48,456 nucleotides of DNA, taken from the NCBI RefSeq assembly GCF_019414865.1, contig NZ_DXLG01000001.1, positions 1 to 48,456 on the forward strand, written 5' to 3'. Under the pieces are notes generated by a model that had not been told where the DNA came from, made no database searches, and saw only the letters and a list, made by a program, of their open reading frames with translations. This document shows positions 20,886-22,980 of the stretch, in pieces (the stretch's first letter is position 1; every line of letters starts with the position of its first letter). Source of the DNA: Veillonella sp. (GTDB lineage: Bacteria > Bacillota > Negativicutes > Veillonellales > Veillonellaceae). A program made the translations under genes and the position numbers.

Positions 20886-21451
20886 TGGTACTCCTTATAG
20901 ATAATTACGATAGCTTCTCCTTCAATTTATACCAATTAGTAGGCTCTATCGATCCAGATATTAAAGTCATCCGCAGTGATGAATTAACAGTTGAAGAAAT
21001 CCGCGCTTTGAAACCAGACTGTGTGATACTTTCACCAGGACCTGGCAGACCAGCTGATGCGGGCGTATATGAAGACCTATTGCGCGAATGCAAAGGTGAA
21101 TTCCCAATTCTTGGCGTATGCCTTGGACACCAAGCCATTGGCGAAGTGTTCGGCGGCACCGTTTCCTACGCAAAACAAGTAATGCACGGCAAACAAAGCG
21201 TAGCAAAACAAGTACACCCATCCAAAATCCTTAAAGGTGTACCAGAACAATTCGAAGTCGCTCGCTACCACTCCTTGGCGATTGTAGACGAAACAATCCC
21301 AAGCGAACTCATCGTCACATCCATTACAGACGACGGCGAAGTAATGAGCGTAGAACACAAAGACTACCCAATCTACGGCGTGCAATTCCATCCGGAATCC
21401 ATCATGACGCCAAACGGGGAACAAATGATTCGCAATTTCTTAGAAAAATAA
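20885..21451 (+). CDS. trpG: Anthranilate synthase component II
   Basis: IDNYDSF, SPGPG, GVCLGHQ and QFHPES. Confidence 0.96.
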   Translation: MVLLIDNYDSFSFNLYQLVGSIDPDIKVIRSDELTVEEIRALKPDCVILSPGPGRPADAGVYEDLLRECKGEFPILGVCLGHQAIGEVFGGTVSYAKQVMHGKQSVAKQVHPSKILKGVPEQFEVARYHSLAIVDETIPSELIVTSITDDGEVMSVEHKDYPIYGVQFHPESIMTPNGEQMIRNFLEK

Positions 21452-21459
21452 CCTCTGTT

Positions 21460-21630
21460 TGTATTCGAGGGGCTATTTATAAGTCTTAGAATGATAGAGC
21501 AGAAATAAGGTCTCTCGGAACTCCAAGTGGCCACCACCTCACTACGTGAGGCCGCCAAGTCGTTCCTTAAGACCTTATTTCCTGCCAACTCTACCTTGGC
21601 ATTACCTAATAATAGCCCCTCTACAATACA
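21460..21630 (-). repeat. Long nested hairpin element, copy 1 (core reads on the minus strand)
   Basis: GAGGGGCTATT/AATAGCCCCTC (21467-21477/21611-21621); GAAATAAGGTCT/AGACCTTATTTC (21502-21513/21570-21581); core at 21521-21562. Confidence 0.8.
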
Positions 21631-21792
21631 TATCGTAAACTGTAGCCATATTTTCTAAAGAAATATGCGAATCAGAACCCCTTATCTAAGAAGTGGTGGT
21701 GCGCAGCACCACCATTCCCACCCCCTATAAAGGAATGACCTGTGCATTACTCTATATAATGCGCAGGATCATTTGATAATAGTTTGTTTGAG

Positions 21793-21952
21793 GGATATCT
21801 ATTAAATTGGTATGATTTTGCTGATAGGTGCGATTGGGTTATGTGTGAAGCCGACTTGGCGCCCCGCATAGCGGGGGGTGGCCTCTTGGAGGCTGAGGGC
21901 ATGACCCAATCGGTACAGCCTAGGTAGAATGGTATTAATTTAATAGATATCC
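21793..21952 (+). repeat. Long nested hairpin element, copy 2 (core reads on the plus strand)
   Basis: GGATATCTATTAAATT/AATTTAATAGATATCC (21793-21808/21937-21952); CGATTGGGTTATG/CATGACCCAATCG (21831-21843/21900-21912); core at 21852-21891. Confidence 0.8.
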
Positions 21953-21969
21953 TAAAAAGGAGATTTAAA

Positions 21970-22980
21970 ATGATTAAAGACGCATTATATGCAGTAACGC
22001 ATGGTCAAGATTTATCCTACGACCTTGCTAAAGATACAATGAATAAAATTATGAGCGGCGAGGTAGACGAGGTTCCTATGGCTGGTTTCTTGTGCGCTCT
22101 TGCAGCGAAAGGGCCTACTGTAGATGAGGTTACGGCTTTTGCTGAGGTTATGCGCGAGAAGGCTGGTTCTGTGCCTCATGAAGGTACTGTTGTGGAAATC
22201 GTAGGTACTGGCGGCGATGAAGCTAATACATTTAACATTTCTACTACATCTGGTTTTATCATTTCTGCAGCAGGTATTCCTGTAGCGAAACATGGTAACC
22301 GCAGTGTATCTAGTAAATGTGGCGCAGCTGATTTGATCGAAGCATTGGGCGCTAAACTAGAGCTTAACGGTGAACAAAATGAGGCAGTCCTCAACAAAGC
22401 CAATATGTGCTTCATGTTTGCTCCTGTATACCACCAAGCTATGAAGTATGCTGGCCCTGTACGTAAGGCGTTAGGCGTTCGTACTGTGTTCAACATCCTT
22501 GGACCATTGGCGAATCCAGCAGGTGCTACTGTGGAGTTGATGGGCGTTTACGATAAATCTTTGGTAGAGCCATTGGCTCGCGTATTGGCTAACCTTGGGG
22601 TTAAACGCGGTGCTGTGGTACACGGATTCGACGGTCTTGATGAAATTACAGCTACTAACAAAACGTACGTATGCGAAATTAATAATGGTACTTTCACAAG
22701 CTACGAATTCGATCCTAAGGACTATGGTTTCGAATACGCCGATAAAACTGAGCTAGAAGGTGGCGATGCTACGGTAAATGCTGAGATTACTCGTCACGTT
22801 CTCGGTGGTGAACAAGGCGGTAAACGCACGGCGGTTCTCCTCAATGCTGGCATGGCGATTTACCTCGCTAAAGAGGGGCTTACATTGGCAGAGGGCATTG
22901 AAGAGGCGAAAAACATGATCGACTCTGGTAAGGCTCTTGCTACAATGGAACAGTTTGTGAAAGCAACCCAAGAGGTATAA
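21970..22980 (+). CDS. trpD: Anthranilate phosphoribosyltransferase
   Basis: GTGGD, NIST, KHGNRSVSSKCG and RTVFNILGPLANP. Confidence 0.96.
   Translation: MIKDALYAVTHGQDLSYDLAKDTMNKIMSGEVDEVPMAGFLCALAAKGPTVDEVTAFAEVMREKAGSVPHEGTVVEIVGTGGDEANTFNISTTSGFIISAAGIPVAKHGNRSVSSKCGAADLIEALGAKLELNGEQNEAVLNKANMCFMFAPVYHQAMKYAGPVRKALGVRTVFNILGPLANPAGATVELMGVYDKSLVEPLARVLANLGVKRGAVVHGFDGLDEITATNKTYVCEINNGTFTSYEFDPKDYGFEYADKTELEGGDATVNAEITRHVLGGEQGGKRTAVLLNAGMAIYLAKEGLTLAEGIEEAKNMIDSGKALATMEQFVKATQEV

Follow-up and report, generated by a model that had tools for sequence, protein, structure and literature searches.

Background

In bacterial chromosomes the leading strand of replication carries more G than C and more T than A, a skew centred on the origin. 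Other described systems that come close to the one reported here are the repetitive extragenic palindromes (REP) and bacterial interspersed mosaic elements (BIME) with their REP-associated tyrosine transposases (RAYT), clustered hypermutation of the kataegis or activation-induced deaminase (AID) type, and the fixation biases of synonymous selection and GC-biased gene conversion (gBGC). Here we describe the trpG-trpD junction in a 48,456-nucleotide stretch of Veillonella sp. DNA (contig NZ_DXLG01000001.1 of assembly GCF_019414865.1; the whole stretch is called the window), where two copies of a hairpin element separate two genes whose silent sites are biased in opposite directions. An original prediction, made from the sequence alone, was that the element may be a nicking, priming or helicase-loading site at which one strand is repeatedly exposed and deaminated. 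We found that the bias at trpG and trpD is an instance of a pattern shared across the Veillonella parvula group and that it is linked to a family of hairpin elements. This mirror-image silent-site pattern around repeats is real and apparently undescribed. Literature searches returned nothing on flank skew around bacterial repeats, with no account of it around REPs, and nothing on these elements; the Veillonella passages of one paper (PMC8632094) concern other motifs.

The pattern shares with origin skew its G/T axis, a reverse-complement-symmetric polarity, a keto-rich (G/T) outward strand and its greatest strength at silent sites. However, it extends over about 300-400 nt rather than half a chromosome, has some 10-20 centres per genome at hairpin repeats and is far larger in amplitude (position-3 G+T 0.30 versus 0.68); nothing shows that replication starts at the elements. 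Like REPs and BIMEs, the elements are short palindromic intergenic repeats inside operons, many with cores bearing GTAG-like loops, and Y1 transposase genes do occur in the genus (61 of 82 genomes, 0-14 copies). However, no single-copy RAYT-like gene accompanies the elements, and a derivation from a REP/RAYT or IS200/IS605 repeat with a cognate Y1 enzyme was rejected, as four genomes that keep the skew (G041, G043, G058 and G067, all complete or 99-100% complete) have no Y1_Tnp gene. The only Y1 copy in the window, at 35906-36253 on the plus strand, is a degenerate IS200/IS605-type remnant (Pfam Y1_Tnp, 97.8 bits) with three in-frame stops; other genomes of the genus have 0-14 intact copies. 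Kataegis and AID-type hypermutation likewise act locally around a DNA feature and in a strand-coordinated way over hundreds of bases, but 5'->3' resection predicts, by reasoning, the opposite polarity, and the element flanks are ancient and stable, with no raised transitions. Synonymous selection and gBGC leave the same rate signature of a fixation bias, changes out of the favoured class being fewer and turnover inside it unrestricted; in the element flanks, however, the favoured class is amino (A/C) or keto rather than tRNA-preferred codons or G+C, and its sign flips across the element.

Results

Silent-site bias at trpG-trpD and queC-queT

The genome analysed is a draft of 1.73 Mb in 214 contigs (39.1% G+C, 90% complete), in which genes were taken as non-overlapping long open reading frames (ORFs), not curated calls, with uncertain start positions. 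Recounted in frame, 63 of the 72 codons of trpG at 21164-21379 end in A or C, as originally counted; the nine exceptions (ATG, CTT, GGT, GCT, TTG, GCG, ATT, ATT, ATG) include the two Met codons noted then, and Glu is GAA in all six cases. The count for trpD at 22069-22194 (35 of 42 codons ending in G or T) was also reproduced, whereas Glu there is GAG in four of five codons and not, as first given, in five of six. The position-3 A/C share of trpG is the highest among 1486 long-ORF genes (0.739, against a mean of 0.461 with a standard deviation (sd) of 0.056; runner-up 0.657). Only 13 of 394,423 windows of 72 codons, in two of the 1486 genes, hold at least 63 A/C-ending codons, and the next best gene reaches 55. 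Junction contrast, defined as the position-3 A/C share of the last 90 upstream codons minus that of the first 90 downstream codons, is 0.43 for trpG|trpD, the second highest value among 1111 co-directional neighbour pairs (mean 0.022, sd 0.089). Taken by itself, the trpD window is ordinary: 199 of 436,270 windows of 42 codons are as extreme, in 25 of the 1479 genes left after removal of seven ORFs with masked N runs. trpG and the paired junction are thus exceptional, but not the trpD window.

Ranked by maximal segments, the trpG stretch at 21113-21379 scores 29.1, second in the genome, and the third-ranked segment scores 13.8. The trpD segment at 22111-22194 is only 48th among genes, in a ranking of G/T stretches that still included N-run artefacts (the A/C side is unaffected). 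Such artefacts arise from 100-nt masked N runs within ORFs, which mimic perfect 35-39-codon G/T runs (contigs C7, C42, C84, C149, C157, C189 and C192); on C7 one of them directly adjoins an element copy.

The only other gene with a trpG-like A/C window is queC (contig C13, Pfam QueC), in which composition switches abruptly and 66 of the last 71 codons end in A or C. Downstream lie a 442-nt spacer with a nested hairpin bearing a related core, and then queT; the queC|queT contrast ranks first of the 1111 co-directional junctions. The two top A/C-rich and three of the top four G/T-rich segments of the genome lie 126-187 nt from an element, and only 36 of 1479 genes are within 700 nt of one. Shorter segments lower in both lists are not near elements. 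The top G/T-rich segment (72 of 84 third positions G/T over codons 110-193) belongs to the minus-strand gene C78:772-1359, on whose short contig no element was found. Between the queC-side element and queT (contig C13, ~21060-21110; L051, ~1074-1124), a hairpin with an A-rich tail stands directly 5' of queT and is conserved even in outgroups. This hairpin is possibly of the preQ1 riboswitch type, although Rfam gave no match at E<=0.1.

Association of the skew with the element

Regular-expression searches of this genome returned 13 cores judged credible, which lie at 12 loci, and further variants on contig C15. Mean contrast is 0.286 at core-bearing junctions, 10 of 12 of which reach at least 0.20, compared to 0.043 at 26 core-less junctions with stems of at least 18 bp, where 3 of 26 do so (Mann-Whitney p 7e-5). 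Likewise, 330 element-free gaps of at least 150 nt have a mean of 0.033, versus 0.30 at the 12 element junctions (p 9e-8). A comparison of skew around all copies with that at other intergenic sites had been proposed as a check on the original prediction, and its result is positive; the two control means are also too low for hairpins or large gaps in general to be the cause. Across generic junctions, too, the contrast rises weakly as stems become longer (Spearman 0.14, p 3.5e-4). Element junctions rank 1, 2, 7 and 10 of the 1111 co-directional pairs, and most other top ranks hold element variants. When the 23 flanks beside the 13 cores are scored in the predicted direction, 13 fall in the 5% tail and 15 in the 10% tail, and three lie beyond 50%.

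Part of the core list was found after inspecting skew-ranked spacers, and we relied instead on two subsets collected blind to skew. The first comprises the three loci of the first regular expression (6 flanks, Fisher p 0.0021). The second comprises copies found with a covariance model, whose seven flanks have tails of 0.08, 0.23, 0.57, 0.37, 0.02, 0.09 and 0.10 (p 0.013). The skew is linked to the hairpin element family, as originally proposed, in this genome, in both blind sets and in other Veillonella genomes (see below).

When the 12 loci are pooled, the third-position G+T share of the top strand is 0.30-0.35 at -300 to -100 nt and 0.61-0.68 at +100 to +400 nt, and returns to about 0.43-0.55 beyond 400-500 nt. 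The strand leading 5'->3' away from the element is G/T-rich within about 300-400 nt; over this distance the codons of toward-reading genes end in A or C and those of away-reading genes in G or T, and where a convergent pair meets at an element, both genes end in A/C. The original prediction had correctly placed the core of copy 1 on the minus strand and that of copy 2 on the plus strand (Table 1), but it derived the polarity of the skew from these orientations. Single cores of either orientation have both flanks skewed, mirror-symmetrically, and core orientation therefore does not determine the polarity. The non-coding DNA beside the core, mostly hairpin arms, shows no skew (G+T 0.50-0.54).

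The hairpin element family

Compensatory stem changes and a conserved apical core establish the element as a structured hairpin of a new family. Five short-core copies align as a hairpin made up of an A run, a stem of 15-19 bp, an internal loop, an invariant core and a T run that pairs with the A run. The stem differs between copies, with compensatory double changes at 15 of 25 predicted pairs, while the core columns are invariant. Since the A and T runs of the short-core elements pair with each other at the stem base, a free U-tract of the kind that follows the GC-rich stem-loop of a canonical intrinsic terminator is not apparent. The conserved apical module of the elements reads CGACTT(T)RG..YWRTGGAG. 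In seven of nine elements the core-forward strand gives a more stable fold, with a larger number of G-U pairs, than its complement, irrespective of the direction of the neighbouring genes. A covariance model built from the short-core copies returned seven further candidates, for about 20 copies per genome. The sites are intergenic and fixed and include trpG|trpD and queC|queT, as well as two that we presume to be mnmE|mnmG and leuD|leuB (gene names other than TrpE/G/D, QueC and QueT are putative assignments from N-terminal sequences). Rfam 15 gave no gathering-score match in the window and none at E<=1 in 21400-22000, nor any match at E<=0.1 on the elements at 10 further loci.

A scan with the short-core pattern over the genomes of 185,579 species gave 80 loci with DNA, 57 of them in Veillonella (parvula, dispar, infantium, hominis, fallax and others); the remaining 23 are single chance matches in unrelated taxa. 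The long-core pattern is present in 59 of the 82 genus genomes, in 1-4 copies each and at the same few sites across species. Downstream of short-core elements (L102-L180), several away-reading ORFs of different families start with a similar peptide (..LCMRLF.. or VCMRRF..). The outer arm of the element may supply this shared upstream sequence, possibly with the ribosome-binding site and start.

Skew in other genomes

Sites common to many species entered these comparisons once each. In Veillonella, the A/C share of away-reading flanks of short-core elements is 0.275, versus 0.417 distally in the same genes (46 flanks, 12 gene families); ten of the twelve families lie below 0.40, and 0.30 versus 0.42 is obtained when the first 20 codons are skipped (11 families). 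At the chance matches in other taxa the corresponding values are 0.48 and 0.49. Toward-reading flanks have 0.532 versus 0.490 at the short-core elements and 0.513 versus 0.475 at the chance matches. At five long-core sites both sides are displaced, with 0.63 versus 0.51 toward-reading and 0.42 versus 0.51 away-reading. Both the size of the effect and the side that carries it thus differ between element subfamilies.

The A/C share of trpG is 0.65-0.76 in all 30 of the closest species and lies at 0.38-0.59 among 20 that are more distantly related. The trp contrast is 0.352 in 23 species with elements and 0.347 in five ingroup species that have an 18-nt spacer and no element; in 17 other species it is about 0.03-0.06. 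The five element-free alleles differ from one another synonymously at up to 0.18-0.26 of codons, and the empty state therefore does not stem from a very recent single event. Moreover, two outgroup genomes (G032 and G062) carry both trp elements in the same places with a contrast of 0.01-0.03. The dependence on the element that was originally assumed is thus not supported at the trp locus. Skew without the element and elements without skew had been named beforehand as refuting observations, and they refute the simple causal version of the prediction, not the association.

In queC, the last 71 codons have an A/C share of 0.76-0.94 at all 46 ingroup loci, at DNA identities down to 77%, and 0.44-0.58 at four outgroup loci. 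An element was matched downstream of queC by regular expression at 40 of 46 ingroup and 0 of 4 outgroup loci, and at least one of the unmatched ingroup loci has a variant recognizable by eye. The skewed state is old and maintained, and the five diverged element-free trp alleles retain it undiminished. The trpG-trpD spacers of different species (L001-L032) come in discrete sizes of 18, ~160, 340-370, 430, 520-535 and 577-592 nt. These classes correspond to different combinations or subfamilies of hairpin elements, and L011 has an apparent recombinant of copy 1 and copy 2.

Coding properties of the skewed patches

Translational codon preference was rejected, as patch codons are the ribosomal-protein favourite in 61 of 157 cases (0.37-0.41), compared to 0.61 in 19 ribosomal-protein ORFs and 0.49 genome-wide. 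Horizontal transfer of the queC patch was rejected as well. Relative to the outgroup, non-synonymous differences affect 7 of 70 codons inside the patch and 16 of 158 outside it, positions 1 and 2 are alike, and QueC protein identity is 63/70 inside and 142/158 outside. For trpG, transfer fails on the identity of TrpG to the outgroup (93-94%), which is in line with TrpE and TrpD (91-93%). An overlapping gene is contradicted in queC, where stops interrupt the patch in both remaining sense frames and in all antisense frames but one, which is open for only about 58 codons; open alternative frames in trpG exist because the A/C rule itself creates them. Pairing of the two flanks across the element can also be set aside, since over eight loci the same-locus energy (-121.7 kcal/mol) matches the cross-locus value (-122.4, sd 13.5). 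Finally, a Rho-dependent rut region was rejected: Rho_RNA_bind (PF07497) was found in 0 of 82 genus genomes, and a control search detected it in 9 of 14 well-known genomes. From these 82 genomes, the genus Veillonella appears to be without Rho-dependent termination.

Silent substitution rates

The rates below are species divergences within a recombining genus, not direct mutation rates; a parsimony rate table, computed on a saturated and recombining tree, served only as a rough guide. Transitions per silent site in the trpG patch are 0.094, versus 0.133-0.152 in trpE and distal trpD, for moderately diverged pairs, and 0.131 versus 0.191-0.205 for distant pairs. The transition ratio is thus 0.66, while transversions are at 1.3-1.6 times control. 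Four comparisons of the queC patch gave ratios of 0.23-0.69 for transitions and 0.95-1.45 for transversions (divided from counts), and inside the patch A<->C transversions account for much of the silent difference (11 of 23, against 12 of 70). All five other strongly skewed flank families have transition ratios of 0.78-1.0, and in four of the five the transversion ratio exceeds 1.18. Overall, the transition/transversion ratio is about halved in skewed flanks.

By our own two-state arithmetic for the observed shift in composition, added one-way mutation predicts about twice the control level of transitions, fixation bias about 0.45-0.75 times and mutation shifted between strands 0.3-0.85 times. 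At the strength required, the estimate for a fixation bias is about 0.7 times, and for exposure shifted between strands at an unchanged total it is about 0.3-0.6 times. Since transitions are not raised, added deamination is disfavoured. Every transition crosses the amino/keto line, so that the low transition/transversion ratio would also follow from a constraint on amino/keto class.

Features of the trp locus

The 518-nt spacer between trpG and trpD contains nested inverted repeats and two cores, CGACTTGGCG..hairpin..GGTGGCCNCTTGGAG, on opposite strands (Table 1). In copy 1 folding favours the core-forward strand over its complement by 17.4 kcal/mol; in copy 2 the values are -92.8 versus -56.9 kcal/mol, with 14 versus 0 G-U pairs. 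In the last 23 codons of trpG (21380-21451), the silent positions of the final ~15 are near-identical across the ingroup and largely common to outgroups, which suggests a separate constraint at the junction; under such a constraint the A/C patch would end short of the stop codon. A promoter scan of 20800-22300 found 5 sites versus 3.5 +/- 1.9 in shuffles, no enrichment, and the same interval holds 0 terminator-like sites. Three contigs from RNA libraries (8.8, 13.7 and 18.8 kb) each span the whole stretch and carry no strand, start or end information.

Table 1. Genes, biased segments and hairpin elements at the trp locus (window coordinates)
Feature	Coordinates	Strand	Remarks
trpE, anthranilate synthase component I	19368..20885	+	Pfam Chorismate_bind and Anth_synt_I_N; position-3 A/C 0.51; control gene
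trpG, class-I glutamine amidotransferase	20885..21451	+	Pfam; position-3 A/C 0.739, rank 1/1486 ORFs
Maximal A/C-rich trpG segment	21113..21379	+	Codons 77-165, 76/89 end in A/C; includes 21164-21379
Hairpin element copy 1	21455..21625	-	Nested inverted repeats; core CGACTTGGCG..CTTGGAG on minus strand, 21520-21562
Middle spacer segment	21626..21789		Further inverted repeats; 21744-21763 pairs with 21981-22000; missing where spacer is shorter
Hairpin element copy 2	21790..21955	+	Arms 21793-21817 / 21928-21952; core on plus strand, 21852-21892
trpD, anthranilate phosphoribosyltransferase family	21970..22980	+	Pfam; A/C 0.37 in first 90 codons, 0.43 in whole gene
Maximal G/T-rich trpD segment	22111..22194	+	Codons 48-75, 25/28 end in G/T; inside 22069-22194

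Discussion

We tentatively favour, at somewhat less than an even chance, a fixation bias that acts on, and keeps up, the amino/keto composition of silent sites next to the elements, whose likeliest target would be a single-stranded nucleic acid reading into the hairpin. A directional bias of this kind would amount to selection or to a selection-like conversion bias. The RNA or DNA that reads into the hairpin would be kept A/C-rich and would then be unable to pair with itself or to compete with the hairpin; fresh deamination triggered by the element would have no part in it. In its favour are the association with the elements, the geometry, the recurrence in other Veillonella genomes, the age of the state, the selection-like rates and the skew retained by the element-free trp alleles. 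The skew itself, with its geometry, age, turnover and link to the element family, and the lack of extra transitions are observed; we infer both the target and the action at fixation, rather than through redistributed mutation.

Several observations weigh against this reading. The rates fit redistributed mutation as well as fixation bias by the two-state arithmetic, and the pattern is symmetric under reverse complementation and shares the axis of replication skew, G and T rising jointly, which is the mark of a DNA-level process. Codon positions 1 and 2 shift slightly in the same way (0.46 and 0.56, from a baseline of about 0.50). To our knowledge, no function distinguishes amino from keto bases at silent positions. 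Nor is decoding the target, given that the patch uses rare, non-preferred codons (GGC 13 versus GGT 2) and has Leu changes at the silent first position (TTG to CTA). The toward-reading flanks of short-core elements (+0.044) resemble controls (+0.037), so that mainly the away-reading flank is affected. The newly found copies have flanks of only mild skew, one of the seven lying in the 5% tail, and a divergent-gene locus on contig C160 has no skew. The unskewed outgroup junctions of G032 and G062 belong here as well.

It is possible, though on the unlikely side, that the elements mark a recurrent, outward, strand-specific DNA transaction that leaves the total mutation rate unraised, spans a few hundred bases and has, over evolutionary time, rewritten the synonymous positions of adjacent housekeeping genes. 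The element would then behave like a miniature origin, through outward repair or restart synthesis with an error bias from G.T mispairs or through single-strand exposure shifted between strands. The origin-like, reverse-complement-symmetric keto/amino pattern of about 300-400 nt, expressed at the nucleotide rather than the codon level, is what such a transaction should leave, as is the slight shift at positions 1 and 2. The predicted range of 0.3-0.85 overlaps the observed transition ratios, and hairpin-bearing junctions generally trend the same way, if weakly. However, the trp comparisons, with skew lacking an element and elements lacking skew, are as troublesome here, and the hairpin arms are unskewed. 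Hairpin cleavage followed by 5'->3' resection would, on reasoning only, produce the opposite polarity. No constant candidate enzyme was identified, the Y1 transposase being absent from the four skewed genomes named above.

Association without causation we consider improbable. The junctions would have become skewed otherwise in the ancestor of the clade, and elements would preferentially insert or survive there. Skew at the trp locus does track clade rather than element, and elements occupy the same sites in many species. However, such junctions have no known independent cause, strong skew without an element is rare (3 of 26 core-less junctions with long stems reach 0.20), and the outgroup carries elements at an unskewed junction.

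The local hypermutation of the original prediction, in which one strand is exposed time and again at a site of nicking, priming or helicase loading and the skew is built up by additional C->T and A->G deamination, now seems slightly more doubtful again. Its geometry suits an often single-stranded strand leading away from the element, the link with the element family is strong, and the elements are strand-specific folders, the core-forward strand being the better one in seven of nine with more G-U/G-T pairs. However, transitions are not raised (0.66 times control in the trpG patch and 0.78-1.0 times in all five other families) and the transition/transversion ratio is about halved, which speaks against repeated deamination. 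Nor are the hairpin arms and the non-coding DNA next to the core skewed, and the skew is independent of core orientation, persists without the element and is absent with elements in G032 and G062. Ordinary explanations (windows extreme by chance, codon preference in translation, gene transfer or an overlapping frame) are very improbable, for although the trpD window is ordinary by itself and the windows were originally picked after the bias was seen, trpG ranks first of 1486 genes and its junction second of 1111.

Conclusions

The composition of silent sites is usually credited to genome-wide mutation bias and translational selection. In this Veillonella genome the most extreme silent-site compositions are predicted by a repeat family; the effect reaches a few hundred bases and is of opposite sign on the two sides of the element. 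A selective cause would mean that coding sequence beside structured intergenic elements is under a constraint so far unrecognised, which would bear on codon-based inference of expression, gene transfer and synonymous divergence (dS) and on the recoding of genes. A mutational cause would mean that bacteria possess local regimes of mutation or repair that are directed to particular sites and recognizable from sequence alone; should the DNA-transaction explanation be true, the repeat family would set a site-directed local regime of mutation or conversion in a bacterial chromosome. These possibilities are testable in a culturable oral and gut commensal, which offers about 20 defined sites per genome and natural empty and occupied alleles.

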